This document shows, one piece after another, positions 14,791 to 49,641 of a DNA stretch of 64,000 nt (positions are counted from its first letter, which is position 1; the number at the start of each line of letters is the position of its first letter). Under the pieces are notes generated by a model. That model searched no databases, was not told where the DNA came from, and saw only the letters and a list, made by a program, of their open reading frames with translations. The DNA is taken from positions 55,430,001-55,494,000 of the forward strand of contig CM059432.1 in assembly GCA_030390025.1 (NCBI GenBank). The letters are read 5' to 3'. The DNA comes from Squalus acanthias (lineage: Eukaryota). Both the position numbers and the translations under genes were made by a program.

Positions 14791-16115
14791 TATAATGTAA
14801 AAAATTCCATAAAATATTCTACAAAATAAGGAAATCCTAGTTTGAATACTGAATTATATGAGGCGGTACAAAAAGATTTAGAAACCATTTTTATCCAAGG
14901 TAGTATATATGTGGCTGACCATGGGAATTTGATGGCGTCGCACAAAAATGAATCTGTAGCCATTTTGAAACAGTTGATTTTTCTGATTTCATAATGACAA
15001 ATTACGCTGAATAGGACATACAACATTCTTCATTGGTAGGTAATTTGTGATCTAAGCATATTTTTGATTTGTTCAGTTTATTTTAAAAATATTAAGGTCT
15101 CAGGTTAATATTTTAATTAACCATCAAAATAACATGCATAGAGATGGAAGTTTATAAACTATGTAAAATAATATATTGCATTGGGCTTTGAAACGTCAAT
15201 TAAATAAATCTAAATTTAAATGTTACTCAAGAGTCCTCATAGAATATTCCAGCATACTTAATGAACCTTCATAAGATCTGGAAATCAAAATATTACCAAA
15301 AAATGCAAACCCACAATTACAAGGTGTTAGATGTTGTAGACTCCAACAAAACATTAGCTCTTCCCCCCCATTTCATGTTTTCATTCAATGGATGTCGAAC
15401 CAGTTTTACAGAACTAAAATGAAAAATAAAGATAATTAAAATCTTATACCTGAATCAGTGGTACATACTATAGAGTTTGGATTATGACAATCCGGCACAG
15501 ACACCTGGCCAAATGGCCTCCTTCTGTGCAGTAAATTTCTATGTTTCTATGACTACGAAAAGATTAGCATTACTGAAAGTTGGTAAGTCACCTGCTCCAG
15601 ATGGAATGCATCCTAGGTTGCTGAAAGAAGCAAAGGTAGAAATAGCAGAGGCATTGGTCACAATCTTTCAATCCTCATTGGATACAGGAGTAGTGCCGGA
15701 GGACTGGAGGCTTGCTAATGTTATACCACTGTTCAAGAATGGGGAGAGGGATAGTCCAGTCAGCCTAACATTGTTGGTGGGGAAGTTATTGGAAACCATC
15801 ATCAGGGCCAAATTAAACATTCATTTGGAAAGGCATGGGCTAATCAAGAAGAGCCAGCATGGATTTGTTAAAGGCAAAATTGTATCTGACTAACTCTTTG
15901 ATGAGGTTTGAGAGAAGGTTGATCAAGGTAGTGCAGTAGATGTTCCATTTTGGTAGGAAGAACAAGGAGAGGCAATATAAACTAAAGGGCACAATCCTAA
16001 GGGAGTGCATGAACAGAGAGACTTGGGGGTATATGTGCACAAATCATTGAAGGTGGCAGGGCAGGTTGAGAAAGCGGTTAAAAAAGTATACAGGATACTG
16101 GGCTTCATAAATAGA

Positions 16116-16347
16116 ATTGAGAGGTCGCACAACACCAGGTTATAGTCCAACAGTTTTATTTGAAATCACAAGCTTTCGGAGCTATCGATTGCCCCTTCCT
16201 CAGGTGAAGTAAACAGATACAGAATCGCCAAAGAAGGGGCAATCGATAGCTCCGAAAGCTTGTGATTTCAAATAAAACTGTTGGACTATAACCTGGTGTT
16301 GTGCGACCTCTCAATTTTGTCCACCCCAGTCCAACACCGGCATCTCC
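16116..16347. mobile_element. Penelope-like element terminus: 84-bp inverted arms plus tail, 14-bp TSD
   Basis: Arms 16115-16198 and 16233-16316. TSD gcttcataaataga at 16102-16115 and 16348-16361. Same family as the GIY-YIG-bearing copy at 48673-49480. Confidence 0.85.
16166..16207 (-). ncRNA. Minimal type I hammerhead ribozyme motif
   Basis: Minus strand reads tcac-CUGAGGA-a-GGGGC(aatcgata)GCUCC-GAAA-GCU-U-gtga: perfect stem I, stem II and palindromic stem III. Confidence 0.7.
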
Positions 16348-16972
16348 GCTTCATAAATAGAGGCATGGAGTACAAAAGCAAAGAAGTTATGATGGACCTT
16401 TATAAAACACTGGTTTGGCCTCAACGGGAGTATTGTGTCCAATTCTGGGCGCCGCACTTTAGGAAGAATGTCAAGGCCTTAGTGAGGGTGCAGAAAAGAT
16501 TTACGAGAATGATTCCAGGGATGAGGGACTTCAGTTATGTGGATAGACTAGAGAAGCTGGGGTTGTTCTCCTTAGAGCAGAGAAGGTTGAGAAGAGGTTT
16601 GATAGAGGTGTTCAAAATCATGAGGGGTCTGGACAGAGTAGATGGAGAGAAATTGTTCCCATTGGCGGAAGGGTCGAGAACCAGAGGACACAGATTTAAG
16701 GGGATTGGCAAAAGAACCAAAGGCGACATGAGGAAAAACTTTTTTACGCAGAAAGTGGTTAGGATCTGGAATGCACTGCCTGAAAGGGTGGTGGAGGCAG
16801 ACTCAATCGTAGGTTTCAAAAGGGAATTGGATAAGTACCTGAAGGAAAAAAATTTGCAGGGCTACAGGGAAATGGTGGGGGAGTGGGACTAGATGAAGTG
16901 CTCTTGCAGAGAGCTGCCACAGGTTCGACGGGCCGAATGGCCTCCATTTGTGCTGTAACCATTCTATGATTC

Positions 16973-18851
16973 TATATATGGACTTTTGGAAGGCATTTGA
17001 CAAAGTGCCACACAGGAGGCTGATTAAGAAGATGGAAGCCCATGGAAATAAGGGGCAAGTGGCAGTATGGATACAAAATTGGCTCAGTGACAGGAAGCAA
17101 AGGGTAGTGGTGGATGGGTGTTTTCAGACTGGGAGGTAGTTTGCAGTGGTGTTCCCCAAGGGTCAGTTTTGGGTCCATTACTATTTTCAATTTTTATAAA
17201 TAACCTAGACTCGGGTGTAGGGAGCAGCATTATAAAGTTTGCAGATGATACATAACTTAGCAAAGTAATAGTGATGAGGATCGTTATAGGCTTCAGGATG
17301 ACAAACAGGATGGTGAAATGGGCAGAAGCATGGCAGATGGAGTTCAATGTGGAGAAGTGTAAAGTGATGCACTTTGGGAGGACTAATATGGAAAGACAGT
17401 ATACTATAAATGGCACATTTTTGAAAAGTGTAGATGAGCAGAGAGGCCTTGGTGTCCATATACATAAATCCTGAAACGTGGCAGGGCAAGTTGATAAAGT
17501 GGGTAAAAAAGCATATGGGCTACTTGTCATAACTAAGACCACCTATTTCCACCTCTGTAACATCGCCCTACTCCGCCCCTGCCTCAGCTCATCTGCTGCT
17601 GAAACCCTCATCCATGCCTTTGTTATCTCTAGACTTGACTATTCCAACATACACCTGGCTGGCCTCCCACATTCTATCCTACGTAAACTGAGGTCATCCA
17701 AAACTCTGCTGCCCGTGTCCTAACTCACACAAAGTCCCGTTCACCCATCACCCCTGTGCTCGCTGACCTACATTGGCTCCCGGTTAAGCAACGCCTCGAT
17801 TTCAAAATTCTCATCCTTGTTTTCAAATCCCTCTATGGCCTCGCCCCTCCCTATCTCTGCAATCTCCTCCAACCCAGGACCCTCTGAGATATCTGCGCTC
17901 CTCTAATTCTGGCCACTTGAGAATCCCTGATTTTAATCGCTCAACCATTGGCGGCCGTGCCTTCAGCTGCCAAGGCCCTAAGCTCAGGAATTCCTTCCCT
18001 AAACCTCTCTGCCTCTCTTTCCTCCTTTAAGACGGTCCTTAAAACCTACCTCTTTGACTAAGCTTTTGGTCACCTGCCCTAATATTTCTTTAAATAAAAA
18101 TTTCCAACATTCACAGTATTTTGCTCTAATATTTCCTTATGTGGCTCGGTGTCAACTTTTGTTTTATAACACTCCTGTGAAGCCTCTTGAGACGTTTTAC
18201 TATGTTAAAGGTGCTATATAAATACAAGTTGTTGTTGTTGGGTTTATATATAGAGGAATTGAATATAAAAGCAGAGAGATCATGTTAGAACTTTATAAAT
18301 CACTGGTTAGGCCTCAGCTGGAGTATTGTGGACAATTCTGGGCACCACACTTCAGGAAAGATGTGAAGGCCTTAGAAAGGGTACAGAGGAGGTTTACCAG
18401 GAGGTTACCGGGGATGAGGGACTTCAGTTATGAGGAGAGATTGGAAAAGTTAGGACTGTTCTCCTTGGAACAGAGAAGCTTAAGAGGTGACCTAATAGAG
18501 GTTTTCAAGATGATAAGTTTTGATAGGGTAGACAGAGAAAAACTATTCCCTCTGGCGAGTGGGTCAATAACTAGAGGTCATAGATTTAAAATCATTGGCA
18601 AAAGGTCTAGAGGGGAGCTGCAAAGACATTTTTTACTCAGAGTTGTTGGGATCTGGAACGCTCTACCTGAAAAGGTGGTGGAAGCTGATTCCATAAATAA
18701 TTTTTAAAGGGAGTTGGACAGGTACTTGAGGATGAGGAACTTACAGGGTTACGGACAAAAGGCAGGGATGTGGGACTAAGCATGACTGCCTTTTCAAAGA
18801 GCCGGCACAGGCACAATGGGCTTCTGTGCTGTAAGTTTCTATGATTCTATG
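16973..18851 (+). mobile_element. CR1 RT/3' fragment interrupted by an L2
   Basis: MDFWKAFDKVPH...KAYGLL[L2]GFIYRG...LEYCGQFWAPH; TTCTATGATTCTATG tail. Confidence 0.88.
17527..18240 (+). mobile_element. L2 3' fragment nested in CR1
   Basis: ETLIHAFVISRLDYSN, HITPVLADLHWL; tail aaaggtgctatataaatacaa(gtt)n. Confidence 0.9.
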
Positions 18852-19144
18852 AAAATATACAACAATGAATGGACTTAAATAGTTCTTCAATCTTTGCTTT
18901 ACTGTAGCAGTACTGCTCATCTTTATGAAAATTTAATAGCCTCTCTTTTTCCTTTTTTTGAACAGTCATACAACCTGTCAAATAACTGAGGGAAGTTTCA
19001 TTGGTTGATGAACCAGTGTTCACTAAAATCCAGTGCAATTATTTGAAGGTTGTTTTCCTAGCACATTCTAAAAGCCAAAAGAGAATTTTTGTGCACTCAT
19101 ATTTCTGACATGTGTATTCAGGATATTTTTCATCAAATTTAGGA

Positions 19145-19948
19145 CTGCTTCAAACTCTGCCATCCACATCTTATCCCATACTAAGTTCAGGGGGTGCATT
19201 TCCTCAGAGATCTCTTGCTCTGCTGCCATAACTTCGGCAGAAACCCGTTTACTCGCATAAACGGGGTTTCTGTCAAACTTTTAACTGTTACAGCAATGGA
19301 GCGATAGAAACTTCAAGGAAATTCACCCCCCAGTTCACCTATTACCCCTGTCCTTATTGACCTCCATTTCCCCAACACATTTCAAAATGCTTGTCATGGC
19401 CGAACTCCAAATTATCTCAGCATTTGCCCCACCTTGCATCCTCCTCTCTTCCCGTTCCTACTAAACTCTACCATTAGTGGGTAAGCCTTCAGCCATCATG
19501 ATCCTGGATTCCACTCTCCTCCTGAAACCCTCCACCTTGCTACATCTATCTCCATCTTCAAAACCCATGTCTCGAACCACCCCTTACTCTTCTCTTAACA
19601 CTTGCTCAGTGTCCATTTCCCCTTATGTGAAGTGCCCTTGGGACATTTCAGTCCATTAAAGCACTATATACATTATATATTATATTAGAGTAACGTCTTT
19701 ACCCAGAGAGTGGCGAGAATGTGGAACTCGCTACCACAGGGAGTGGTTGAAGTGAATGGTATAGATACATTTAAAGGGAGGCTAGATAAGCATATGAGGG
19801 AGAAGGGAATAGAGGGTTATGCTAGATTAAGAAAGACGGGAGGAGATTCGAGGGGAGCATAAATGCTAGCATGGACTGGTTGGGCCGAATGGCCTGTTTC
19901 TGTGCTGTATATCCTATTCTCTCTGTAATGTAAATACAAGAAGTTGTT
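19145..19948 (+). mobile_element. Old L2 3' remnant, interrupted by a MITE (19191-19330) and a CR1 3' end (about 19695-19930)
   Basis: L2-like aaactctgc...cacctattacccctgtcc; tail gcactatata resumes as aatacaag after the CR1 piece (tggaactcgctacc...gggccgaatggcctg). Confidence 0.6.
19191..19330. mobile_element. ~140-bp palindromic MITE with 3-bp TSD (CAG)
   Basis: TIR ggggtgcatttcct / aggaaattcacccc; central hairpin cagaaacccgttta...taaacggggtttctg. Confidence 0.7.
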
Positions 19949-22619
19949 TCGATTGTCTTTTGATCACCTGTCTAATTGTCTGATATACGATTAGTATTTT
20001 TTCATAAACTGTATAATGTTGGACTTACATGAAATTAACATTTTTCATAAACATTGGGAGATTAGTTACATTAAAAATAAAAACATTTTGTCTGTAAAGA
20101 AATCATTTCAAACAATATTTCAGTTTAAATGTCAATTTAATACATTCAAAGTAAACTAACACATTCAAAACAAACTGGAACCACGATTGCAGTAAGACAA
20201 TTTGACACAAACATTGTACAAATGTTGAAACTTGAGGTAGGTCTGGTTGGCAAAACAAAATTCACCATATTTTGGGATCCAAAACGTAATTAAATTCAGA
20301 ATTAACATAATGATAAAGCAGCAATTAGATAAAACATCCTATAGAGTTACAAAAAGCCATTGCATAATTTAAGCTTCACAGTTAAGTTGTTCATATTCTA
20401 CAGCTAACCTAATACTAGATTTTGTATTTGAATCAACTACTGTTCACATGCAACAAAAAAAAGATTACTCACCTTCAGGTGTAGTACTCATTTTTTTGAA
20501 TGAAGGTATCCTACACAGACCATTGAGTAAACTATCCAAATCAACTGGGAAAATCAATGAGAACTTTCAGGCTGGAGTGGGGCATTTCCTTCCCACACAA
20601 CTTAAGGGAGTCTTTCAAGTGGGCATCTTCAGGTTTAACTTTTTTTGTAATTGTGTTACTTCACACACCTCTCCCATTTCAACTGTTACATATGAAAGCA
20701 ACAGTTCTAGATCCGGAGAAAAGATGTGCTTTTGCATTTAAAGCCTACTTCAAAACTCCGGCATGGTAGAATCTACAATGCGCATGTTTCTCAAGACATA
20801 ACCTGGAAGAAGGGCATTGTGGGCTGTATAGGAGACAAAGCCAATGGCTCGGTCACATTTTAAGATATGGTGTCAAGGTGCAATGGTGTTTGAGCACTGG
20901 AAAGGTGGTTAAAAAGAGAGGGGAAGCAGAACCTGGAAACACATGCCTTGTCAGGATATTGTCAACTGTGATGTTTCTGCCAAAGCCAAATCTATTAGTA
21001 TAATTCAGAGCACTTGGGAAAGTACCATACCATTAAGTATAGCTAAGGAGGTTGGGTAAGGAGCCTCAAAACCAGGATAATGAAGATGAGTGTGAAGGCT
21101 ATAAGATTAGCAAGTATCAAACCTATGGCTCTCTCACCCTTGTGGTGTCCCTTGGGAGTGCAACATACTCTACCTCTAACCAAGGACTGCTTTGAGGTGG
21201 ACTTTGTAGCATAATCAATACATCAGAACTTTGGGTAAGAACTTAACATGGGATATATTATTAGCTTCAGTGACCCTCATTCAGTTACTGGTGATATCTA
21301 GTGAATCTGCAGGGGTCCAAAAGCATGGGTGCTGGCAATTGACATAAAGGTAATGTGTACAAGGGGCCCTGGAGATGGCAAGTATGAGGATCATTGCAAT
21401 CAGTACTAGATACTTAAAACCTGTTAAAGACACTTTTACAGCTCCTCTGATGGCCAAAGGGTAAGGTGTTGCCCGATGTCGCACAAGACCTGCTGACACT
21501 TCCAGCTTTATTTATCACCAGCATTAATTAATTTAAAATAAATGGATTAACAACAGTGCTAAAATGCTGTCAAAACTCACAGATACCAATGTTTCAAAAA
21601 AACCTGTTTCTGAACCCTTCCCCCCACCCCATGTCTCGGAGGCCGGAGTGCTGCTTGGACATTATCTGTCCCTTAACTTTCAATTTGGTGAAGATATTCT
21701 CCTGAAATGCCAAATTCACTATTCAGGTTTTGAGTCATTCGGCACCCACAAAATGTGGGGACAGGCAAGCTGTAAGAAATGGATTGGTGGTTTGGCAGTG
21801 CTTTGTCAATACTTAAAAATGGAGTCTGCTGACTTATAGTCAGAGTTTTGTGAAAGGTATTGTTGTGCATGCATGGACAACATCCCGTAGTTCCTTTACT
21901 TGCTGCTAAGCCAAGGCAGTCTGATAAATTTGATCAGTAGTGAAACATGCCTATCTCAAGGGCATGATACAAAGTCTAATGCTAACAGAAACTCGATGTC
22001 TAGACTCTTTCCTGGGTTGGGGATGAAGTACATGAACCATACCGGAGAGAATTTGCTGAGAGGGGAGCTAATTTCATTGATCAATTTAGGATTGGTTATC
22101 TGTACAGTTTATCTACTAAACTATATTTCAAACTACTTTGAATATTCAAAACTCTACAAAACCTTACCACACCAAGGCATGCAGTGGTAAATCAATGTAT
22201 TTTTCAGCCTAAAACCTGGTATGCTTATATTTGAGAACAATTCCACTTGGGTAATAACAGCACTAAAAGATAACTGCCCCTGTATCGGGAACCAAAGTTA
22301 GAAGTTATAGGATCTGATTCCTCTTCCTCTAATATCAGGAACGCAGAGAAATACACCCTTAGCTACCAAAAATTCAATAGCACCTGGAGAAGACTACCTG
22401 TCACAAAGCAGAGATGAGGAGACTGGTGCTAGTTCCTCTTGCAGCTTTTACTATATGATCATGTGTAGCTTATAAAAATATTTGAAAAGAGACTAGAGTT
22501 ATAGGGAATTCTTTCCTAAAAAGGTCTGCTTTTCCTTTATTCCCATCTTGTGCTATATATTGGATTTAGAGCTTAGGAACAGGGGACGTTAAGGGGCTGC
22601 TTAGAATTTCAAACACAAT

Positions 22620-23375
22620 GGGCTGGATTTTGTCTTGGGGTGGGTCGTGTAATCCGCATTTCGTGTTTCCCCCCCCTGACTCCAGATTAATGTGGATGCC
22701 TGATGCAATTTTCACTTAATTGGGCAATTGAGTTGCAGCATGTGGGAACCCATGAACTAATTAGTGTTTTCAGTCTGAAAGTCGCCTCTGATGATGTCAT
22801 CATTGCTGACTAGTCTCAGAGACTGTTGGCGAGAGAGGACTTGCCTGGCTTTTGATGTGAGTGGACCTGGATGCAAAAATGGGGGGGGGGAGGAGAGGGA
22901 GAGGCAGAGGGAGAGAGATTGAAAGAGAGAGATTGAGAGATTTTGCCAAGCAAGTCCTCCCAGGCAGTCTCTGAAGACATTCAATATAGCAGCATCAGAG
23001 GCGACGTTCAGACCTAATACTACTACTACCTTCATCACATCTCCGTTGTAATAGTGGACCTGCAGCTGACTATCAGCTATCCACTTGTGCTTCCGCCAGG
23101 TTTCACTGCCGTGTTTCACACCAGGCGTGCTTCACGTCAGAAGAGGGTTAAACTAGCTACAGCGTTTCAAAATGGCATTACAGAGCCAATTTAGAGCTTG
23201 TTAAGGGCTTTAATGGCCTCTCCCGCCTCTTGAAGGCGGGACGGAGTCAGGAACCCTGTGACTGATTCTGTCAAAATTGCGTGGAGGCGGGATGGGGTCG
23301 GAAACCCCGACCACGCAAATTTAACCCCCCACACGCCTCCAAACCCGACTCCATGGGTCATTCAAAATCTAGCCC
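22620..23375. mobile_element. Harbinger-type non-autonomous element, TSD AAT
   Basis: TIR gggctggattttg / caaaatctagccc; aat at 22617-22619 and 23376-23378. Confidence 0.8.
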
Positions 23376-25299
23376 AATGTGCCAAGACCAAATGCATTGG
23401 CTGTTGACATGCCAAGATACAGAACATGAAAGGTCACACCTAAAATGTGAACTTACTTTTTTCAGATATTGACCCGATCGGCTGTACTTTTCCAGCATTT
23501 TCTGTTTTAATTTCAGGATACAGTACACTAAATTGTGTCTGTTCACCCACGTGTCAATGCAGGGCACTGTCTTAGGGTAGTTCAAAATTTACAAGTGTGC
23601 TAAAATTGTATACATTTGGGCAACCATGTGGAAGTAGTTTTTAGATACAGTAGATTTCAAACCCACACCATGTCTTCATTTTATTTTTCAGGGGGGATTT
23701 TGTGAAGGATGAATTATAAAAGGGCCAAAGCTATGATCTGACTAACTCTGCTTTTCCTTGTCTGGATGTTTCTTCTTCAACTGAATATTGCCCTGGCAGG
23801 CTCTATAATTGAAAAGAGATACTGCAACCTCTGGTGCTTCACTCTTTGCTGGAATTTCGAATAAAAGTTATGTGAGACACCAGAGACAGTAGCTGCAGTT
23901 TATGGCACAGAATGGCTTTATGGAGCTAATGCGTTGTTTGAAAGCTGGTATGCACTCAAGTTCAACATAAAAGAGTTACTGAAATAGAAAAAATGCACTA
24001 CTGAACTTAAGTCTTCCGATATAGATCAGTGGCACGAAAGCAATTCATTCCAATAGTTGGAGAAGATTTGCTGTGTGCTATGTGTAGCAAAATCATAAAT
24101 GTGTTTTATAAAGAATAAGTTTCACATTCACTACACATAGTACACAAGGATATTATCCGCCAGCAGTTCAGCAATCTGTGTGAGAACAACCTTACAGAGG
24201 AACTCGAACAGAAAGTTATCACTCCAGCCTGAAACTTGAGTTTCCACTTATTTTTCCAATTGGCCTGTCTAACCTGTTCATTGTATGTAGAGTACAACAA
24301 ATGCAGAAGAATTTGTATTATGCACTACAAATTTAAAAATGGATTTACAATGGTGTTCTAACTAACACAGCATACATTCAGTCATAAAATGCACACAGTT
24401 CAGTGACAGGACTGGGTGCTATGCTACAGCAGAATGCCAATCACAGCAAAATATATTGATTTCACAATAACTGATGGTTACATTAAGAAGGACAGGACAT
24501 GATTCAAACAGTACCTGTTGCAAGTGTACATACAAACCAAATACTTAGATGGAGAGGTCTATCATTTATTTAGCTACTTCTAGACTAGGCCATAGTAAGC
24601 AAAATGTAGCACTATGTCCTGTCAGTGGAATTTGAACTTCAGCAATACATTCATGTAATACAAAGCTACCTGAGATCTGTGACAATAAGACTTACCCTTT
24701 ATGTTGCCATAATCCATTTCCCAACGCCAATATCATGGGATACCTTTAAAACCCATAAACCTCTTTTGTATAAAGCTCACATAACAGTGGATGAATATAA
24801 AAGTTCAAAAAGTTCTGTAATTATTGTCTTGAAAATTCAGCCAAGAAATTGTGTACAGTGTGTGGGGGGGAGAGAACTACACTGTAAGATAAAAGATAAA
24901 CCTTGTTCATTATAATTGCCACTATTTACGGTAATAGTTTGCTTCAAAGGTCATCTCACTAATAACAAAATCAAAGTGGGTTTTTTTCAGTTGCAATTCC
25001 CGTGCTCACCATTGCTATTAGAGCACATGCATATTGCTGCTGGCAGGCCTGTGTCTGTGTAGCCTGAAGTTAACACTGTACTGACACTTTCCAATTGTAA
25101 TTTAAAAATGTGTTGATTTTTTCTCTTTCCATATGTCAATTTGGAATGTTTTTATTCCAATATTTTTGTTTGTAGGATCAAATATTCAGACTTTGGTCAA
25201 AAGTCAAACTACTAGTAAAATAGTTGCAGACCAAATAATCACATCACATGACATTTATCCTTTCAGAAAGATCACAATACCAACCTATATTATAATTTT

Positions 25300-26824
25300 A
25301 TGATCCTCAGCACAGGCGTAGTTTATTAAATTTGGGGGGGGGGGCACTAATTTAAAATTTTCATACAATTGTTATCCTTCTCTTTTGTCTTTGAGTTGCT
25401 GTTGAGATTATCACTGCATTTCATATATGAATCATATAAAAAGGTCTCCTGCAGACTTAGACTGCTGTAGGTGTATAAAAATTAGTCAACGTGGTATGGT
25501 GTAGCACAGTGATAATTAGGATGAATTACAACTAAATCAATGTTAAATTCATTTATATCCCCACAGACCATCTCTTAAAAACAAAAAAAATTAAAAATGA
25601 CACGTTACAGGCAACACAGCAGGGAACCATAAGATATGTGATACTAGTGCACATTTACTCTCTTCATATATGTATCGTACAAAACTGAGAACCACATTGC
25701 CTCCATCCTCTAAACAGCAGTTAGCTTTTACCATTTTAACATTTAAAATAGAAAAGGTGTAGATGTTCTGAGTGTCAAGACTGCACATTCAGCCTACCAA
25801 AAGCTATGATTCAATGCATTATGGATAATTACTTGCATGAAATTAGGAGCTAATGAAAACAATGGCAGTAAGTGTAAATAAAGCATACAACTACCTGTGC
25901 AATACATAGAAAAGTAGTCTTGGGGAGGATACATAAGAGAGAACACAGACAATTCTATTAAATGAAATTACAAATTAACAAAGGCCTGCATTGTGTATAG
26001 TCAGAAAATGTTTCTAGACCAGATGCCATTAAAATTTACAGCAATACCCCCACTGAAAGCATCATGTAATGAAATCTTACAAATACCCTAGTAATGCGTT
26101 TAGATTAAAATGTCCAGGAGATATGTGAGCTTTTAAAAAAAAACTTTGACGGGTTAAGTACTACACCAAATAAGTATAAAACCATACACTACAAAAACAA
26201 CAAAAAAAATATTAAGAGAATAGTTAGCATGATTACGGACAACCCCTCTCCATTGTCACCTATTTGTAAACCCCTGAGCTTAACTGTAATTACGTACAGT
26301 CAGAATAGTGACGGCGGAGAATCTTCAACATACAATCATCAATTGCTCTCACTCCACTGCTTTGGTTCCATTCCTTCCAGTGAAGTGTCTCTGTTGACAG
26401 TAGTTCACTCTTCTTTGATCCAGGTCTACTTTTGACATGTTTTAAAATAAGCAGTACTGGTCAAACCCATGATAGAAAAACAAACACATTCTGCAGCTCA
26501 GACTGCCTTTTCCTGCCATGTTGAATAGGTTGATGTACCATGTCGTATGTAAAGCCTCACAAATCGCACAATTAACTCTCTTCTGGAGTTACTGAAGAAA
26601 CTGGCCTCAGAATGTAGCCCTCTCTTATCCCCGAGGACTTTGTCTCTGTTCTGATATAATTGTTTGTTAAAGTGACCGTGGTCAGACTATCAACAAATTC
26701 CGATTTTGTTTTCTACAACTGTGCCACTTTACCCTTCTCCTGGAATTATAAATTGTGCTCTATCACACTGTTATTAGTGCCACCCATCACCCTTGCTTGT
26801 CGTTTCTTGCCATCTGAAGTGAGT
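25300..26824 (-). other. GREB1L: Probable GREB1L 3' UTR; candidate AATAAA at 25327-25322 (alternatives at 25156-25151 and 24570-24565)
   Basis: Repeat-free, U-rich (minus strand) sequence after the stop codon. The true polyA site cannot be fixed without transcript data. Confidence 0.45.
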
Positions 26825-27025
<201 letters not shown>

Positions 27026-30974: not shown

Positions 30975-31110
30975 GGGATGATGAAAGGGCATCGACCTGA
31001 AACGTTAACTCTGTTTCTCTCTCCACAGATACTGCCTGACCTGCTGAATATTTCCAGCATTTTTTGTTTATATTTCAGATTTCCAGCATCTGCAGTATTT
31101 TGCTTTTGTT
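30975..31110 (+). mobile_element. Short Penelope-like terminal repeat (second family), hammerhead core mutated
   Basis: atgatgaaagggcatcgacctgaaacgttaact...tttccagcat...ctgcagtattttgcttttg. Related copies at 23425-23516, 36374-36436, 42067-42202 and 52340-52480. Confidence 0.65.
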
Positions 31111-31980: not shown

Positions 31981-32396
31981 CAGCGGCAGCAGCGGGAGCG
32001 ACGGACCTATGAGGGAGCAGCGGCTGTGGGAGAAAATAAAGGTCGGTGATTTTCAGGCCTAGTCGAGCAGCAGGAGCGGCGGACCTGCGAGGGAGCAGCG
32101 GCTGTGGGAGAAAATAAAGGTCGGTGATTTTCAGGCCTAGTCGAGCAGCAGGAGCGGCGGACCTGCGAGGGAGCAGCGGCTGTGGGAGAAAATAAAGGTC
32201 GGTGATTTTCAGGCCTAGTCGAGCAGCGGCAGCAGTAGGAGCGGCGGACCTGCGAGGGAGCAGCGGCTGTGGGAGAAAATAAAGGTTGGTGATTTTCAGG
32301 CCTAGTCGAGCAGCGGCAGCAGCAGGAGCGGCGGACCTGCGAGGGAGCAGCGGCTGTGGGAGAAAATAAAGGTTGGTGATTTTCAGGCCCAGTCGA
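31981..32396 (+). repeat. Five tandem CpG-rich units of 78-87 bp in the CR1 5' UTR
   Basis: Units start at 31981, 32067, 32145, 32223 and 32310; core ggagcggcggacctgcgagggagcagcggctgtgggagaaaataaaggtcggtgattttcaggcctagtcga. Confidence 0.95.
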
Positions 32397-32413
32397 GCTG
32401 CGGCAGAATTCGA

Positions 32414-38856: not shown

Positions 38857-39022
38857 CTGCTCGGTTCCTGCATATTATGAACATTCCAAAGGACACAAGA
38901 GTCATCCATGACAAGTATAAATGGCCACACACACTGTCGTTTGACCCCTGTCTCTTCTTGGCGGTTTCGTTCCAACTCCAAGTTGTGGTATGAAAGTTCT
39001 TTGATTAAAAAGTGGGCAGCAC
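38857..39022 (-). CDS. GREB1L: GREB1L coding exon ([20 protein letters not shown]...MDDSCVLWN)
   Basis: Acceptor ctcttcAG, donor GTAAGA. 166 nt, phase 1 to 2. Confidence 0.95.
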
Positions 39023-40412
39023 CTGAAGAGGTCAAACAGTTACACAAGGCATTACTCAATTCGTAAATCCATTTTTCTGGACAACTGCAGAAAAAAGGAT
39101 ACATTCACTTTCCTATTGGTTAAAAGTGTGATATTAAGTGAAAAATAAATGATAATTAGCCATTATTTGAAGAAATGTAGCTGTAGACTCCTCTCAATCC
39201 AAATTCATAGAGTATGATTGCTATCAGTTATCTTTGGTAAAGTCTTCATCCTTTGATTGAAGTTTATCCTTCACATAAACACAGATAGGTCCTTTGTCAA
39301 ATTGGTTTGGGGGGGGTGGGGGTGAAGAATTGGACAGTGTCCCATTAGCAGAAAACTTAGGGAGGCTGCTTTGGTGGTTCAGTGCCTCCCAAAGAAGACC
39401 ACTTTAAGCTGGAGCTGCAATAAGACACTCTTGGAAGAGTGAGATTAAGCCTCCCTCAACTGGTGCTCCAATATTGGTGTGGTCCTGAAACTTTTTACAA
39501 TGTCCTCTTGGCCTACCAGACAAACCACTCTGAAGTGTTTGTGCTGCTTTTCAGATTTGGCTGGGGAACCTGAAGGCTTACTCTCAGTATTTCCTGTCAG
39601 CATATCTTTGGGGAATTTCTGTTTTCCATTACTTTATTTTCATCATGCTTTTCTGGAAAGGTCAAGATAAACTGTATAATCTCGTGAGATTTTGCAGTTA
39701 GGAAGATAACAAAGATACAGATGATCAACGGGGAAAGGCCCAACGTGACAACCAAAGATGATGCTGCTCGCAAAATTGACAACCAATTATGAAAAAGGAA
39801 AGAAAGAACTTAAGAAACCTCTTTAAGTGGGGAGCAGCACTGAGACCTTTCTACTGTCAGTAAAGAATTATGAAGTTTTCGCAAGCAAAAAGCTCTCTAA
39901 GGGGCATTGCCCCATCACCCTTATTTGACAATGGACCATCCTAAAGTATATAGAGGATAAACAAATGAGGAACTATTTGATTTACAAGCTGAATACAAAA
40001 ACATCATAAATATTTTCATGTTTAGATATCTTGTATCACGTGTTAACAATAGTGTACTGTAAAATCCTTTGTTTTCATGGCAAATGTTCATGTTGTTGAT
40101 CATGAGTGAACAAAAATCTCTAATAAACATACACTCACCAAGTATTAGTCTAATGTGATTACTAAACGTCCAACAAAAGTAGATAGAAATATAAAAGAAC
40201 AACAATGAAATTCCATGGAAACAAATATTTGCAAAACGACTCCCATAAACCACTGCTTGGATCACTTACCAATTTCAATATAGTGTTGCAAACACTAGAT
40301 GAAAAAGACTTGCGTGGACTGCTTTACTGAAAATTAATCTACCTCACAACCTTATATAACACCTACTGCTCACTACAACATAACCAGAAAACATAAAGCA
40401 GTGTTTACTTAC

Positions 40413-40617
40413 CCACCCCTGCACCATTGAACATGCCTGGTAATACCAACATAATGTGGTTGGGCCAGTATTTTCGATAGAGAGGCATTTCAAACTCTTT
40501 AACCACAAGGATGTGAAGGTGGTTTGCACCCTCTATGGCATGGTAGAGGTTCAGAAGGCCATGCTCGTGCCGCCCTGTAGTAGGTGTAAAGATAGGACTC
40601 TTCACTAATTTTGGATT
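40413..40617 (-). CDS. GREB1L: GREB1L coding exon ([27 protein letters not shown]...[10 protein letters not shown])
   Basis: Acceptor gttttggcAG, donor GTAAGT. 205 nt, phase 0 to 1. Confidence 0.95.
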
Positions 40618-40834
40618 CTGCCAAAACAAATTAAGGAAAACATTGCTAAATAAAAGTAATTGCATCAAATTTGAGGCCATTCTTTTATACAATGAGTACA
40701 ACAGAGGAGCCTATGCATTACATAAATTTCCCAACATTATGCATCTGAAATTAGCAAGCAGTAGTGCTCATATTTATTAAGGGAATTTTAGACAAAATAG
40801 CTGCTATTCCGGCACACCAACACTCCAGATACTT

Positions 40835-41550
40835 TGGCACCGATATTTGGGGAGGGGTGCTCTTTTGCTTTCGGGAAACCCGGAAGAATGGGTTTCCCAC
40901 AGGTTTTTACGGCAGGACCTGATTAACATTTTGCGTCTTCAATTCCCGGCTGCAGCCAGCCAGATTGAGGGGCTGGCTGTCGGGTGGGTAGGCCTGCAAC
41001 AGCAGGCTGCAGCCGAGGAGGGAAGAGGGGATCAGAAATGCAGGAGGGGAGAGATCAGAGGCCGAAGTGGTGGGGAGACCGGAAGGGTCGGAGGGAGATA
41101 GGAATGGGCGGAGGGAGATCGGAGGCCACAGCCAGGGAGCGCAGAGGATGGAGGGAGGAGATCGCAAAGGCCGGGTTGGGGGCACATTGTAGCTCGGGGG
41201 GGGGTGGAGATTGGATGGTGAGGGGGCGGGGTCCAATCACAGGGGGAGGGGGGGGGGGTCCAATCGCGGGGTGGTCAGATCGAAGGGGAGGCTCATGGTC
41301 GATCGCAGGGTGGGGTGGGGGTAGAAGCAGGTTAGCTTTGTGGGCCAGGGGAGAGCCTAGTCCTGCTCCTCCTGGTCCACAAGCAGTGCTGGATCCAGCA
41401 GTCCTCGCCTCCCTTTAGCTGCTGGGTAACCCGAGACCCAGGAAACCCGATTGGCCAGGGTTAACCTAAAATGGAGGAAAATACTGAGGCACATTGCCTC
41501 ATTATACTATTTAAATAATGCCCATCCCACCACCGGAAGTGGCCCCAATT
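40835..41550. mobile_element. GC-rich non-autonomous DNA element with gatcg/G-run interior
   Basis: Internal gggaaacccg motifs and G-rich low-complexity core; family shared with 36606-37128. Confidence 0.45.
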
Positions 41551-42066
41551 CTTCAACAAGCACTTCCTGCAAGTCGTTTATGATTCTGATCCATCACAAA
41601 GGCATTGACTGTATTGCATCTTCGCAGTGGTACAATCTAGGAAATGAACTTTTCCCTAGGTGTTAATGGCAATAGAAATATTAACTGAGTAAATTAGAAT
41701 TAAAAACGGGTGATAGTAAATCAGCAGCCCATTTTACATCTCCCGATTTTTATTTCCATTGATTTCACCCGTTTTACACTATCGCACAAAGTCAAGGTCG
41801 ACCTCAAGTGGTAGACTTTTCCCATTGTTCCTGCCCGTCTCAGATATGATTACAACCTAAAATGGTTGCAAAGGGAATAGTAATTTTTTTTTAATGTACT
41901 TGTTAAAAGGCTTTTTTAGAAGTGTAAAGCCCTTGATAGAGGCTCATCGTGAGAACATTTTGCACAGAGGACTAAAAATGAAAACTGAGTTCTGAACTCC
42001 CATTCAGAACAGGGGTTAATCAGAAAAAAGCTGAAGATTTGGAGAATCAGGACAACTAGTACTTAT

Positions 42067-42202
42067 ACAAAAGCAAAATAGTGCAGATGCTGGAAATCTG
42101 AAATAAAAACAGAAAATGCTGGAAATACTCAGCAGGTCAGACAGCATCTGTGGAGAGAGAAACAAAGTTAACGTTTCAGGTCGATGACCTTTCATCAGAT
42201 CT
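42067..42202 (-). mobile_element. Short Penelope-like terminal repeat with intact hammerhead core (42166-42202)
   Basis: Minus strand reads agat-CUGAUGA-a-AGGUC(auc)GACCU-GAAA-CGU-U-aact. Confidence 0.7.
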
Positions 42203-43105
42203 ATGACCTCATCTCCATGTGTTTCGGCAATTAATCAGGCTTTCTGAACGTTTATACTGCCATTGGTAAACGCTTCAGTTTTGCACAATCTCACCATTTT
42301 ACAAGTGGATTCACTCTATTTCTGATAGTTATACGAAATAAGCCGCTTTTAACTGCTTGAAAAATGTGAAAGTTTTTTGTAATTTCTGTTAAAATCAGAT
42401 GTCACAAAATTGACCGAAGAAAAATGATGACCAGCCACCATTTTAAGTGGCACATATTAAAATCTACAATCTATTGCTTTATTATCAACATGGTAAGATA
42501 TCCCCCTAGGTTTAAATACTTTGAGTACAGAGCATTATAAGCCATTATTTATTTGTCTTCAGCATTTAGTGTGTTCAATAGAACAACAGTATAAGCTTTA
42601 AGGCAGTCATAATGAATAGCTTCACCCTTAAGGACCACTCACTAAAAGTATTCAGTCAATGTGCAGTAGTTAACAAAAAGACTGATAAAGCTCGATGACA
42701 CATCCTAGTAATGTGATTACAAGTCAAACTCTACAGTGTAAGTTTACTCCTGTATAAGGCTAATTGGTAAGGCTAGATTTAGAATACTGTACTACTTTCA
42801 GGCTCCTTAATTTCAAAAGGACATTGATGCATCAGAAAGAATTCAAAGTAGAGTGACAGAAATGGTTCTGCAACTTAAGCACGAGCTTCTAAAAAGGGAT
42901 TCACATATCTGAGCTCGTCTTCATGTAAGAAAACATGGTAAGGGTATATGATCTAGTTATTTAAAATAATGAGAAACCTGACTAATATAAAAAGGAAAGG
43001 GGAGATGACACCTTAATCTTACTTTAGGGTGAGAGGTGTTCATTTGTCCTGAATCTTGGCCAAACTCCCACAAAGCACAAATGGTTATTTCTTTTAACTT
43101 TAGGT

Positions 43106-43520
43106 GTCAGCCTTGGCTCAGTGGTAGCATTCTCGCCTTTGAGTCAGGAGGTTGTGGTTTCAAGCCCCACTCCAGAGACTAGAGTACATAATCCAGGCCA
43201 ACACTTTGGTGCAGTACAGAGCCAGTGCTGCACTGTCGGAGGTGCCGTCTTTTGCATGAGATGTTAAACCGAGGTATGGTCTTCCCTCTCAGGTGGACTT
43301 AAAAGCTCCCATGGCACTATTCGAAGAGGAGCAGCAGACTTCTGGCCAACATTTATCCCTCAATCAACATCATTAAAAATAATTATCTGGTCATTATTGC
43401 ATTGCTGTTTGTGGGACCTTACTGTGCGCAAATTGACTGCTGCGCTTCGCTACATTGCAACAGTGACTACATTTCAAAAATACTTCATTGGCTTAAAAGC
43501 ACTCGGGGACGTCCCAAGTC
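43106..43520 (+). mobile_element. DeuSINE, tail truncated
   Basis: Same head and Deu domain as 3271-3720. Confidence 0.85.
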
Positions 43521-43608
43521 CTTTCCTTCACAACAGAAATGTTTAAATCTCTATCAAAATAACATTAGCTCAGAATAATGTTTTTAAGGAGTTCATACAG
43601 TTGCTGAC

Positions 43609-43770
43609 CTTATCTGTGACAAGAGGTAGACGCATGCTTTCCAGATGTTTACCCTGCTGGCTGAAGACAAAATGCTGCTCCTTTGACTTGGGGATAATAA
43701 AATGAAGCTGCACTTCCTCTCCCAACATGGAGGAAGAAAACGTAAATGCATGTAGTGTGGAATCAAACAC
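43609..43770 (-). CDS. GREB1L: GREB1L coding exon ([22 protein letters not shown]...LPLVTDK)
   Basis: Acceptor tgtgtttcAG, donor GTCAGC. 162 nt, phase 0 to 0. Confidence 0.95.
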
Positions 43771-44096
43771 CTGAAACACAATTAGATCATGGATTCAATC
43801 TCTCCAATGAAGCTTTATACTTAAATTTCTGCAACAGGTAATCCTGGATATCATTAGTGAAATCTTATACAAACGCACTGTATGCCATCTGCACTGAATA
43901 ATATGAAGTGTGCTGGACTTAATTTTAGAAAATGATGATAAAGGAGCATCAGAATTAAAACTAATTTTAAAAAATGCAGAAGTAGTGCAGGTAGAGTAAA
44001 TGAAAGAGAAGACTGTAGGTATATAGGAAGAAAAGCGAGTAATGTATTCAATGATTAACTAAAGAGGATGTACATCAATAGCTCCCTGGACATATT

Positions 44097-44852
44097 GGCC
44101 CGTATTTTCCGATCGCAGGCCTCCCGCGTGCAGAGGCCTGTGATCTGGAAAAATCTACGCCCTTACCTGAGGGCTCCCAGGACGCACACACTTCCGATCC
44201 TGGGCCTCTCCAAACTCCAAGTGTGCAGGGCCCACATATCCCAGAGGCGCAGGCAGTTCGCAGCGTCCCTGGGATCACGTGGGCCATGGGGAGCCAATCA
44301 AAGAAGGGAATCTCCCTTCATACACTTAACAGGAAGACCTGTCAAATATATGAATGGAGATCACCCCAAAAACATAGTAAAACTTTAAATAAATTTTTTT
44401 TTTAAATCACATTTTTTAAATGACTTGAAATTACAATAAATTAAATATTTTAAACAAAAATTTAATTTTTTGAAAAAAATAATTGAAGTTTTTTACGGGG
44501 CTAAAAATAAACTTACCTTTTTAAAAGTATTTTTAAATGATAAATCAGTGAAATTTTTTAAAAAAACTTTTTTCAACTCTTATCCTGGTAAAAGCAGGCC
44601 TTACACCTGCTTTTACCAGGCGTAAGAATTGTAAGGGTTTTCTGCGGGCGGAGGGTCTCCAAAAAGCAGAACTATCCGCCCGCAGAGGCCCTTCTCCAGG
44701 GCAGGCGGAGGATCTGTCGAGAGAATTCTTGACAGATCGGAAATGCTGGTTTTCAGCGAATGCGTTGTGCGTGCCTGAAACCGGCATTTCCGATGTCCCT
44801 ACGGGTGGGTACACGGCGTGTACACACCCGTAGTGATCGGACTATCTGGGCC
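44097..44852. mobile_element. Harbinger-type MITE, TSD ATT, AT-rich centre
   Basis: TIR ggcccgtattttccgatc / gatcggactatctgggcc; att on both flanks; related to 62340-63082. Confidence 0.75.
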
Positions 44853-45753
44853 ATTAAATTAATACTGTAGCATAAACTTACAATGGTCTGTATCAGCAAG
44901 TTCAACAGGAATAAACATGAATCAAGCACAGGGCAAGATTGGTCATCTGTAACCTTAAGGACCTTGGACATGACCTTATATAGGATCTTCTTAGCTGGTG
45001 AGAAAAGTAAAGACAGAACGTTCCGGTTGTCCATAAAGCACTTTACATGCAATGGTACAATCAGGTTAGCAACCTTCTTGCTATAAAGTCCAGATTCTCA
45101 GAAGGATCCAACTGGAACTAGGTTCACCAGGGTGGCCTAGACATCAAAATAGTTGTCACATTGCTAGTGACTATAGCCTGATATGGGTTTCACTCGCCAA
45201 AAGATAGTGGGTGGCGGGCGAGCAGCTGTCATTTTCCTATTTGTCCGGCAGCCTGTGGCGGCTGTCTAATGGAGAAGATGGAAGTGTATACAACATTGTG
45301 GTGGTGTTGTATCTGCCTGAAAGTCAAATTTATGGCAGTTCTTATCCAGGATCCATGGCACACTTTATAACTGCTTTATAATCTTATATTTATCTATGCT
45401 AAGGAAGTGCTATTTTAAATCACACAAATTATAGGCCAAGTTTATGATACGGGAGATACTGAATGGTGGCTAAGGACTTCACCCATAAAGAGGGATGATT
45501 ACTCTTGCACACTCCCTAAAGGCTAGTTACACAGTGGCATTGGTAAAGCCTTGTGAACAGCTGGTCACACCTAACAATGGAAACTAAGGACTGCTCAGTG
45601 TGTTCAGTGACTTAAAAGAGGGAAGACAATATATATATTTTCCTTATATTAAATAAAATGAGAAAATGCCACTGGATATAAAAATTTTGATTAAAATGCA
45701 AAAAACTGGCCTACTAGGTTTAAAGACAGTAAATACCCATATCTGGTTCTGAC

Positions 45754-45896
45754 CTGTGTGGTAGGGTTGAAGTCTACGTAATGATGGCAGTGCTCACAAT
45801 GATGGAATGTGTTGTATGCAGCATACTTGGTTAGCATAATAGACACAGTCTCTCGTTTTGCTGATCCTTCACTCGGGCTGCGTTCTTTACCGCTTT
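45754..45896 (-). CDS. GREB1L: GREB1L coding exon (KRETVSIMLTKYAAYNTFHHCEHC)
   Basis: Translated by hand. Acceptor tgtattttccAG, donor GTCAGA. 143 nt, phase 1 to 0. Confidence 0.95.
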
Positions 45897-46397
45897 CTGG
45901 AAAATACAGAACATCTCATTATCAGCTACAATATACAAAAACTGCAAATAATTCACAAATATGTTGAAATATGACAGCAAGTGACTTGCAGCTTTTTAAA
46001 TACCTTGATGGACAAATATAGCATCACCATTTTTACAGATGAACCATTGGACACAATTGACATAAAATTCCTCTGTGCACCATTTTAACGAAGCTGTTAA
46101 TCTATTTATTTTACATGACTAAATGACTTTGTTAAAATAGCAAACAGATTTGACTATTTGTTTCAAATAGTCCACAGAGGCATTTCACCATTTATATATA
46201 ATTATCCTTAGTTGAGCTTCTGTTTTTAAAAGAATCTGTTCTTTGAAGGATCTCTATGCCACAACAGAAATCACAAAAACTTTTATAAATTGATATCTAT
46301 TAGTTTTTTAATGGAAAGGAATTGAACTTGCTGGCCCTTAAATTCATTAGTGCCTGAAACTGGGTGCGATTCCAGCGGCGCGCAGCAACAGTATGCT

Positions 46398-46910
46398 GAG
46401 GTTTGGGGAGGGAATTCCAAAGCTTAGGGCCTAGGGTCCTGAAGGCACGTTTGCCAATGATGGGGCAAAGGAAGTGGGGGATGCACAAGAGGTTGGAGGA
46501 ACCCAGGTTGTATGGCTGGAGGAGCTTACAGATATATGGAGGGAGGCCATGGATGGATTTGAACACTAAGAATTTGAAATTTGAGGCACTGGTGGACCGG
46601 GAGTCAATGTAGGTCAGCGAGCACAGGGGTGATGGGTAAACGAGACTTGGTGCGAGTTAGGATAAGGGCAGCAGTATTTTGGATGAGTTCAACTTTATAG
46701 AGGGTGGAAGATGGCAGACCAGCCAGGAGAGCATTGTCTAGCTCAGCTGAAGTCACATGGCAGTCAACTTGGCAATGGAGGTTATGTCAAGAAATGTCAC
46801 TGGTCGCATCATTACAGACTGTTAAAATCAAGTCTGGAGGTAACATAATTATGGATGAAGGTATCAGCAGCAGATGGGCCGAGGCGGTGCAGAGACGGGC
46901 GATGTTATGA
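46398..46910 (-). mobile_element. L2 fragment containing an 86-bp foreign insert
   Basis: FKSIHGL...GPKLWNSLPK; colinear with 4300-4720. Confidence 0.8.
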
Positions 46911-47276
46911 AAGAGTGACTTGAATGGCCATGCAGATTAGGTGCCGCTCCCCAAAAAAACGATCCTCTGTGTGAGTAATTGTCCTTGCCCCCAATATCTC
47001 AGCAATTGCTCTGGCTGCTCAATGAATAGATGAATTAACTTAGATAAATCATCATTGAGTACTTTTGAATGTGTTCCTTATATTATGTATGTATTACAAA
47101 TATATGTAAAGACTTATTGGAAGACTTTGACATTGAACCACATGTTGAAAGGTTGGAGGACAGACAGGTATTATAGACCATCAGCTCAACTGAAGTCACA
47201 TGGCAGTCATCTTGGCAATGGAGATTATGTCAAGAAATGTCACTGGTGGCATCATTACAGACTGTTACAAATATTG

Positions 47277-48258
47277 GGTCTGAATTTCCATTAGGGCCAC
47301 TCTGCCAGCAAGAGTGGTGGAGCAGATCTTAAGTCCACACAAGCCCAGGCTTTGCCCCAAATTATGGGGACGGGCTCATTTGCATCCATGGGGTGGAGAC
47401 ATTGCGCCAGTAAAGATACATCGTGGCATCCAGCCTGATGGGCCACCATGAAAATCAGAGGAGCATTGCACTGTTCTAAAGATGGAGGAGAGACCTGAGA
47501 AGGGTCCAACGATACACAGTGTGAATGACTCTTCAGCTCTGATAGGTGCCAGCAGGAACATAAGAACATAAGAAATAGGAGCAGGAGTAGGCCATTTGGC
47601 CCTTCGAGCCTGCTCTGCCATTCAATAAGATCATGGCTGATCTTCTACCTCAACTCCACTTTCCTGCACTATCCCCATATCCCTTGATTCTCTTAATATT
47701 CAAAAATCTATCGATCTCTGTCTTGAATATACTCAATGACTGAACCTCCACAGCACTCTGGGATAGAGAATTCCAAAGATTCACCACCCTCTGAGTGAAG
47801 AAATTTCTCCTCATCTCAGTCCTAAATGACCAACCCCTTATTCTGAGACTGTGACCCCTGGTTCTAGACTCCCCAGCCAGGGGAAACATCCTCCCTGCAT
47901 CTACCCTCTGAGGTCCTGTAAGAGCATTGTTGCGGTTAATCAATCCTCTCCAGGATCAATAACTTCTTGCTACAGAGCATTTGGGCCTTTCGTGAGGCCT
48001 CAGTGGGACTAAAGCCAACTCTTGGTTGGTCTTAATTTCACTGAGATCTAATCAGGATACACTGTGCAGAATTCCTGAGGTAGCCCAGGAACTCCTCCAA
48101 AACACACACACCCTTTGATGTAGTGGGGATGAGTGAAAAATTTACTGATGCTGCTCCCCCACCGGAAAATGGCTGACTGAAAAATAAAGAACAGAATCCT
48201 GGCGAAACTAGGCAGTTACACTGGAGAAGTGCCCAAGGCCCAAAAAGAATTTCGGGCC
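47277..48258. mobile_element. TIR element hosting a minus-strand CR1 3' fragment (47557-47910)
   Basis: Ends gggtctgaatttc / gaatttcgggcc; the CR1 piece has a cataagaacataagaa tail and RRNFFTQRVVNLWNSL. Confidence 0.55.
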
Positions 48259-48672
48259 TCTGGTCTTTACTAGGTAAAACAATGTATATGTGCTAGCCTG
48301 GCGGTATTATAGATGAAATCAAAAAGTAAATAGCAACAGTTAATGTATGGCAATTTTGAAATTTGCAGATGACACAAAACTTGGAAGTGTAGTAAACAGT
48401 GAGGAAGATAGTAATAGGCTTCAAGAGGACATAGACAGGCTGGTGGAATGGGCAGACACATGGCTGATGAAATACAATGCAGAAAAGTGTGAGGTGATAC
48501 ATTTTGGTCGGAAGAATGAGGAGAGACCATACACATGAAATGGCACAATTTTAAAGGGGGTGTAAAACAGAGAGACCTGGGGGTGTTTGTGCACAAATCT
48601 TTGAAGGAGGCAGGGCAGGTTAACAAAGCAGTGAATAAAGCATATGGGATCCTGGGCTTTATAAATAGAGGC

Positions 48673-49480
48673 CATGATGCGGAGATGCCGGTGTTGGACT
48701 GGGGTGGACAAAAATGAGAAGTCGCACAACACCAGGTTATAGTCCAACAGTTTTATTTGAAATCACGAGCTTTCGGAGCGCTGCTCCTTCGTCAGGTAAA
48801 GTGAGGGAATACAAATCAGCAAAGCATATATAGACAGAGAACAATGTGTTTCTGACTGCCCTCCATCACACCTCGGCAGAGATACAATCAGTCAGGAAGC
48901 ATTACATCAAAGACACAGCAAAATACAGCTAAGACAATGAGGTGGGGTCACAGGGGGTCCAACGTGTCAAATGACATTCAGCCTCGGATCTGCGGGTTAG
49001 CGTTCTCCAAGGCGGCCTTCGAGACACACGACAACGCAAAATCATCGAGCAGAAACTGATAGCCAAGTTCCGCACCCATGAGGATGGCCTCAACCGGGAT
49101 CTTGGTTTCATGTCACGCTACATGACGTAGAGTTATCCAGACTCGAGTCGTCGTTGTCTTGTTCACAGATGTGATTTCCAGTTTTAAAAAAAAGTAAAAA
49201 GCTTAACTGCAGACTGCAGCATTTGACACGTTGGACCCCCGTGACCCCACCTCATTGTCTTAGCTGTATTTTGCTGTGTCTTTGATGTAATGCCTTCCTG
49301 ACTGATTGTATCTCTGCCGAGGTGTGATGGAGGGCAGTCAGAAACACATTGTTCTCTGTCTATATATGCTTTGCTGATTTGTATTCCCTCACTTTACCTG
49401 ACGAAGGAGCAGCGCGCCGAAAGCTCGTGATTTCAAATAAAACTGTTGGACTATAACCTGGTGTTGTGTGACTTCTCATT
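48673..49480 (+). mobile_element. Penelope-like element: GIY-YIG C-terminus flanked by 264-bp inverted pseudo-LTRs, 15-bp TSD
   Basis: 48975-49130 reads HSASDLRVSVLQGGLRDTRQRKIIEQKLIAKFRTHEDGLNRDLGFMSRYMT*. Arms 48710-48973 and 49220-49483. TSD tttataaatagaggc at 48658-48672 and 49481-49495. Confidence 0.88.
48763..48799 (-). ncRNA. Minimal hammerhead ribozyme motif (mirror copy on + at 49394-49430)
   Basis: ttac-CUGACGA-a-GGAGC(agc)GCUCC-GAAA-GCU-C-gtga. Confidence 0.7.
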
Positions 49481-49641
49481 TTTATAAATAGAGGCATAGA
49501 GTACAAAAGCCAGGAAGTTATGTTAAACCTTTATAAAACACTAGTTCGGCCCCAGCTGGAGTATTGTGTCCAATTCTGGGCACCACACTTTAGGAAGGAC
49601 GTGAAGGCTTTGGAGAGGGTATAGAAGAGATTTACTAGAAT

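Follow-up and report, generated by a model that had tools for sequence, protein, structure and literature searches.

We analyzed a 64,000-nucleotide stretch of Squalus acanthias DNA (hereafter the window; assembly GCA_030390025.1, contig CM059432.1, positions 55,430,001 to 55,494,000, forward strand), in which two Penelope-like elements (PLEs) interrupt the GFINRG codons in the second open reading frame (ORF2) of two copies of a long interspersed element (LINE) that we take to be CR1. These codons are an insertion hot spot. We consider it probable that this is a Neptune-type PLE with an extended, sequence-tolerant DNA preference, whose protein nicks DNA as a dimer and primes on the overhangs, CR1 being a bystander.

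Hot spot at the GFINRG codons of CR1

The counts rest on exact-pattern genome matches and on 196 sampled junctions. The 3.71-Gb assembly contains 35,429 exact copies of the 22-nt tail. The strict 17-nt GFINRG site has 27,418 matches genome-wide, including some junctions that recreate the site, and 1,469 tail junctions fall at it, split 437 to 1,032 between the two orientations, where uniform insertion predicts 0.26 (enrichment about 5,600-fold). The junction patterns are blind to reverse-transcription starts before +6, as in insert 1 of the window, and to mutated targets. The same codons of AFIARG-type CR1 hold 4 junctions against 42,743 sites; these copies were available as targets, since the inserts L014 and L023 sit at other positions in them.

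The sequence-only reading had proposed a peak at the GFINRG codons, and the peak is indeed sharp and consists of independent events. It greatly exceeds the count at an AT-rich control site of this CR1 family, 50 bp downstream, which has 36 junctions, in several registers, against 12,400 sites. The per-site fill is 5.1% at GFINRG and at most 0.29% at the control. A generic AT preference combined with the high copy number of CR1 would fit the AT-rich duplication cores and the AT preference described for the Anolis element PAc in the available text of PMC11167929; it is contradicted by the same control (36/12,400 vs 1,469/27,418), and we give it next to no credence.

Junctions were sampled twice. 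Sample A comprises the first 100 tail places listed, within the first 9 Mb of C1 (100 target junctions), and sample B comprises 99 of 100 listed places of a CpG-decay tail variant along C1 and C2 (96 junctions). Tails running into the ORF (6 in A, 5 in B) and L113, in which no tail was seen, were excluded. The pairs L043/L044 and L163/L164, in each of which an identical insertion with matching flanks recurs at a distance (17 kb and 2 kb, respectively) and which may be local duplications or assembly repeats, were kept. The position homologous to GFINRG holds 10 of the 100 junctions in A and 3 of the 96 in B (L173 read by eye). Lesser peaks in ORF2 lie at amino acids 227, 278, 360, 516, and 664 of the reference copy L082, and a secondary hot spot adjoins the main site about 15 bp downstream, at the GIEYK codons (L037, L135, L142, and L196).

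Target motif

A target duplication of 12 bp fits 64 of 78 two-ended insertions in sample A, the window inserts included, and 42 of 50 in sample B. We built a matrix from 47 deduplicated non-CR1 targets, leaving out two-ended insertions with duplications of other lengths (14/78 and 8/50) and those of ambiguous register (22/105). It describes a pseudo-palindrome of about 26 bases, CNCTGNC/TWNWTW WAWNWA/GNCAGNG, with slashes at the ends of the duplication. The strongest positions are the C and G immediately outside the duplication (C at -1, 57%), followed by T at -4 (50%), G at -3 (41%), and C at -5 and -7 (37-40%), around an AT-rich core; the same motif is recovered from the 23 non-CR1 sites of sample B alone. 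The preference extends beyond TTYATAAATAGA, earlier suggested as the recognized sequence, and its strongest letters flank the duplication. The accompanying premise, that descriptions of PLEs go no further than an AT preference, was too narrow, as a microsatellite bias and precise targeting of 28S rDNA are described in the available text of PMC8557442. In a literature search, with most subscription papers and Repbase outside its scope, no PLE turned up that has an extended palindromic motif or a hot spot in CR1.

When the matrix is run over all CR1 copies in the sampled DNA, GFINRG (amino acid 510) ranks first in ORF2, and the observed peaks at amino acids 664, 360, and 584 are also among its top five. 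The matrix predicts 4.85% of insertions at GFINRG, where 13 of the 196 sampled junctions and 4.1% genome-wide were observed, the latter share being approximate because its numerator is anchored on 12 nt and its denominator on the 22-nt tail. The mean scores of empty sites, 11.4 for GFINRG (7 sites) and 3.7 for AFIARG (24 sites), agree with the observed enrichments of 12.5 and 3.3 bits. Across ORF2, matrix scores correlate with observed insertions (Spearman 0.38, p=4e-6; coverage alone 0.16, p=0.06).

Two further recurrent targets were seen. L018, L027, L060, and L062 share one position of a partly tandem repeat starting CCATCAAACACTCCCAGGGCAGG, a non-CR1 hot spot, and L001 and L127 share one position of a short repeat (TCAATAAGATCA) notwithstanding its low matrix score.

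Priming and a model of integration

The head-to-head inserts start at two internal zones of the RNA. Beyond each start, agreement between the RNA and the target bases at the duplication end is more frequent than in permuted pairs: positions 1-5 give 217 matches in 87 junctions, where 114 are expected, and the excess extends beyond the first mismatch both at the tail (0.42 vs 0.26, n=51, p=0.0002) and at the arm (0.38 vs 0.28, n=45, p=0.0002). Of the 100 minus-orientation GFINRG junctions among the matches listed, 93 (counted by eye) have the +11 start, at which four of five bases match between RNA ACUAU and target TCTAT; elsewhere, this start is found in 1 of 87 junctions. It is no flank artefact, because six of the GFINRG +11 junctions carry the letter of another subfamily before the junction.

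The last templated letters are repeated in 4 of 126 junctions; in these (L004, L017, L046, and L090) the tail ends with a repeated CA, TCA, or TCATG, which suggests template slippage at the initiation of reverse transcription. These junction features resemble primer alignment and slippage in telomerase.

Could the RNA rather than the protein make most of the choice, by pairing of the template with target DNA? The excess of matches at both ends would favor this, as would the orientation bias and the fixed +11 start at GFINRG. However, the matches are imperfect and span about 6 nt, and the motif is strongest at symmetric positions that lie outside the duplication (C at -1, G at +13, TG at -4/-3), where they cannot pair as primer; hence we regard a choice made mainly by the RNA as quite improbable.

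In the model that we favor, in which the protein chooses the site, a dimeric Neptune-type protein with reverse transcriptase (RT) and GIY-YIG domains would nick the two strands at points 12 nt from each other, in each case immediately 5' of a G, so that 3' overhangs remain; we infer this geometry because the duplication is of fixed length and both ends are primed. Each overhang would act as a primer, with one cDNA begun at the tail, close to where the ORF starts, and the other about 40 nt upstream. The register would be set as the final 5-6 bases of the primer pair imperfectly with the RNA, and the two cDNAs would be joined head to head. Among abundant sequences, the closest match to the motif would be the GFINRG codons of an old CR1 group (about 27,000 sites, 11-13 bits), so that they would collect some 4-6% of insertions.

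CR1 as a probable bystander

Targeting of CR1 as such is not supported; CR1 would supply many copies of a good site. About 4% of the 35,429 tails lie at the GFINRG site and about 96% elsewhere, 124 of the 196 sampled junctions fall outside CR1 ORF2, the same codons of AFIARG-type CR1 are nearly free of insertions (4 vs 42,743), and a motif derived outside CR1 predicts the peak. Site-specific retroelements of the R2 and Tx1 type have most copies at one target; here the top site has 13 of the 196 sampled ones.

The sequence-only reading had further suggested that CR1 may serve as a safe haven and that the insertions disrupt CR1 RT. Neither suggestion finds support. Most tails lie elsewhere and the same codons are spared in the commoner AFIARG-type CR1, some copies of which keep long open frames, and the hosts carry stops and frame changes, with the site about 50 amino acids beyond the Pfam RT core of CR1 (in the reference L082, to which the window hosts align, RVT_1 matches at E=6e-29). 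The 11 filled hosts have a median pairwise identity of 0.83 (55 pairs). From host decay, the location of the site, and the junction counts, it follows that dead copies are hit and the AFIARG-type position is spared; a defense against CR1 is unsupported because host copies decayed before insertion.

Several points weigh against the combination of a tolerant motif and a bystander CR1, including the approximate nature of the genome-wide share given above. The matrix is built on just 47 sites; two of its high ranks in ORF2, the second (amino acid 243, 2.8% predicted) and the sixth (amino acid 545, 1.2%), received no insertion, and the scores of several sites, in the training set and in CR1, are negative. 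The nick positions, overhang polarity, and dimeric state are inferred. Finally, none of 312 random CR1-like 3.3-kb sequences reaches 12.3 bits (maximum 12.1), so chance is a somewhat unlikely source of so good a match in an abundant LINE, which leaves some room for co-adaptation.

Selection may have tuned the nuclease to the abundant GFINRG site as a safe haven, the motif elsewhere reflecting relaxed recognition. The 5,600-fold peak speaks for this, GFINRG outscores all 312 random sequences although the matrix was never trained on it, CR1 ORF2 receives 46 of 100 junctions in sample A against a background of 24.5% (p=3e-6), and Tx1L offers a precedent for a transposable element that targets another. 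In sample B, however, the share is 26 of 96 against 18.5-24.5% (p=0.04 and 0.55), and, besides the 96% of tails found elsewhere, GFINRG deviates from the consensus at -5 in each half and at -4 in one of them, with a score of 12.4 where 18.2 is the maximum; the filled hosts are old, and open-frame AFIARG-type copies are spared at the site. We therefore consider evolved targeting unlikely. A more far-reaching scheme would join symmetric double target-primed reverse transcription, a 26-bp palindromic, homing-endonuclease-like preference, and telomerase-like overhang alignment that helps to choose orientation and register with a preference that co-evolved with the abundant CR1 site, the PLE thus nearing specificity for another transposable element; it appears doubtful to us.

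Structure and classification of the element

The near-complete element L023, whose pseudo-long terminal repeat (pLTR) is 99-100% identical to insert 1, was used to describe the family. Positions 418-6594 of this locus form a 6.2-kb fold-back of two 2.9-kb arms, 99.3% identical, with a near-complete ORF, within an AFIARG-type CR1. The single ORF matches Pfam RVT_1 (E=2e-9) and carries a C-terminal GIY-YIG motif, VVY..C..C..YIGET, at amino acid 790 with two inner cysteines, as in endonuclease-positive PLEs; Pfam gave no GIY-YIG match in this copy, which shifts frame late in the nuclease. A PDB sequence search with the ORF gave no match.

The ORF also has a CX4CXXC linker, CHGKLCKTC, at amino acid 753. 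In the available text of PMC8557442, a CX2-5CxxC linker before the nuclease is a trait of Neptune, common also to Nematis, and is absent from Penelope/Poseidon. By these linker criteria, the predicted protein is of the Neptune type and not Penelope/Poseidon. Neptune and Poseidon are the only PLE clades found in vertebrates according to the available part of a bioRxiv survey.

The layout is that of a PLE, with pLTRs, an inverted copy, and a 30-40-nt one-sided tail; an inverted arm with a duplication was seen at 76 of 102 sample-A junctions. The pLTR contains a predicted hammerhead-like core, CUGANGA...GAAA, around a hairpin; an Rfam search gave no match at the gathering score. None of the sequencing runs listed as containing the element is of RNA. 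Comparison of reads from 4 of 23 runs with the element end showed that three other organisms carry related elements, whose loose ends fall at the tail stop seen here; the cross-species flank consensus at this stop is mixed (agreement 0.4-0.76), and one run gave no matches.

The two inserts in the window

Both inserts were found where the sequence-only reading had placed them, in the GFINRG codons of two CR1 copies, and they are the sole copies of their PLE family in the window. Each is a head-to-head pLTR pair with the tail on one copy only. The rows below give coordinates within the window, with strand.

15555..16103 (+) host CR1 copy 1, ORF2 remnant 5' of the insertion, with stops and an internal deletion
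16104..16115 (+) insert 1, left 12-bp target duplication, FINR codons
16116..16233 (-) insert 1, inverted pLTR copy without tail; predicted hammerhead core CTGAGGA at 16203; 99% to L023
16233..16349 (+) insert 1, tail-bearing pLTR copy in sense orientation; 100% to L023
16350..16361 (+) insert 1, right 12-bp target duplication
16362..16886 (+) host CR1 copy 1, C-terminal part of ORF2, frame kept across the site
48353..48657 (+) host CR1 copy 2, upstream part, with stops and a frame change
48658..48669 (+) insert 2, left 12-bp target duplication
48670..48971 (-) insert 2, pLTR copy with tail; predicted hammerhead core CTGACGA at 48795
48970..49480 (+) insert 2, tail-less copy with the endonuclease coding end, 3' region, and pLTR; predicted hammerhead core at 49398
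49481..49492 (+) insert 2, right 12-bp target duplication
49493..49636 (+) host CR1 copy 2, downstream part

The inserts are 232 bp and 808 bp long and opposite in orientation. Target duplications are present at both, but the lengths of 14 and 15 bp first assigned to them included letters shared with the element ends and were discarded as microhomology; the 12-bp core is identical in both inserts. As had been noted, the stem-II loop of the hammerhead differs (AATCGATA vs AGC). The pLTR and tail of the two are 94.6% alike over 112 nt, and the tail-less copy of insert 2 is 75% identical to L023 overall and belongs to another subfamily. Since, in addition, the CR1 hosts are 81-84% alike, the insertion events are independent, as first proposed, and not duplicates of one event. 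About 18 windows of 64 kb with two such inserts are expected at the measured rate, and about 6e-7 under uniform insertion.

A composite CR1 and PLE unit, multiplied by CR1 retrotransposition or segmental duplication, is very improbable. Identical flank pairs do occur in the samples (L043/L044, L163/L164), though none at the GFINRG site; the 11 filled loci show both orientations, inserts of 158-808 bp, differing junctions, several PLE subfamilies, and hosts 60-93% alike, and insert 1 is 99-100% identical to L023 in a decayed host. This variety of orientations, lengths, junctions, and hosts contradicts such an origin.

Of the two empty sites proposed earlier, that on the minus strand is a true match, but the other is two letters off the strict site. 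The empty homologous sites of the window are as follows.

842..853 (+) two letters off, score 9.0
6947..6958 (-) GFINRG site, matrix score 10.4
11007..11018 (+) AFIARG-type, score 5.6
18243..18254 (+) score 8.7
35294 further homologous site
58025..58036 (+) AFIAKG-type, score 5.9

Other repeats were also seen. Two short copies of another family, whose hammerhead-like core reads CTGATGA...GAAA, lie outside CR1 at 30979-31109 (+) and 42067-42197 (-), and none of the 14 copies of this second family in the sampled genomic DNA is at the GFINRG site. Positions 31981-32406 form a tandem array with units of roughly 80 bp, and in 46740-47270 an 88-bp sequence is directly repeated at a distance of about 440 bp.

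Significance and comparison with known systems

The fold-back layout of PLEs (PMC3846280) and their target bias for microsatellites and 28S rDNA (PMC8557442) are already known from the available text of these papers, and an AT preference with non-homologous priming comes from the sole prior in vitro report drawn on here (PMC11167929, available in part). PLEs are the sister group of telomerase. Some 35,000 young junctions bear on the cut geometry, calibrate a quantitative motif across the roughly 9 bits that separate two CR1 variants, and provide evidence of primer alignment on the RNA; GFINRG and AFIARG oligonucleotides are a ready pair of good and bad substrates. Further, a tolerant motif in a repeat-rich genome can mimic the targeting of one transposable element by another.

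Tx1L of Xenopus is said to insert repeatedly at one site of another transposon, with an APE endonuclease and near-exclusive targeting, whereas here the preference is tolerant and the targets are many.

The remaining comparisons rest on the available parts of the papers cited. The closest system is PAc, a Poseidon element of Anolis carolinensis, which cuts both strands, is predicted to act as a dimer, and starts reverse transcription at two internal sites (PMC11167929). The shark element resembles it in the RT with C-terminal GIY-YIG, the predicted pLTR hammerhead, the two internal starts bounding the tail, and the probable cutting and extension of both strands. PAc is described with an AT-rich/ATT preference only and a start non-homologous to the target, whereas we find a 26-bp pseudo-palindrome with a fixed 12-bp duplication and significant primer-RNA matching. 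The CX4CXXC linker distinguishes the shark element from Penelope/Poseidon. For the Neptune clade, the linker was proposed to explain a microsatellite bias (PMC8557442), whereas a non-repetitive palindrome is preferred here. PLE-X of Selaginella likewise has a precise recurring target in a multicopy sequence, but this is 28S rDNA, the element lacks an endonuclease (PMC8557442), and the top site here receives about 4-6% of copies. The Pen families of Adineta vaga share the inverted pLTR and tail layout, with 8-10-bp duplications, and have copies too few for a target motif, none being reported in the available text of PMC3846280. Finally, the GIY-YIG enzymes I-TevI and I-BmoI likewise show sequence-tolerant cleavage, a nick 5' of G, and an AT-rich center, but there a single domain nicks twice within CNNNG, at a spacing of 2 nt (PMC12774661), whereas the shark element would place two symmetric nicks 12 nt apart.

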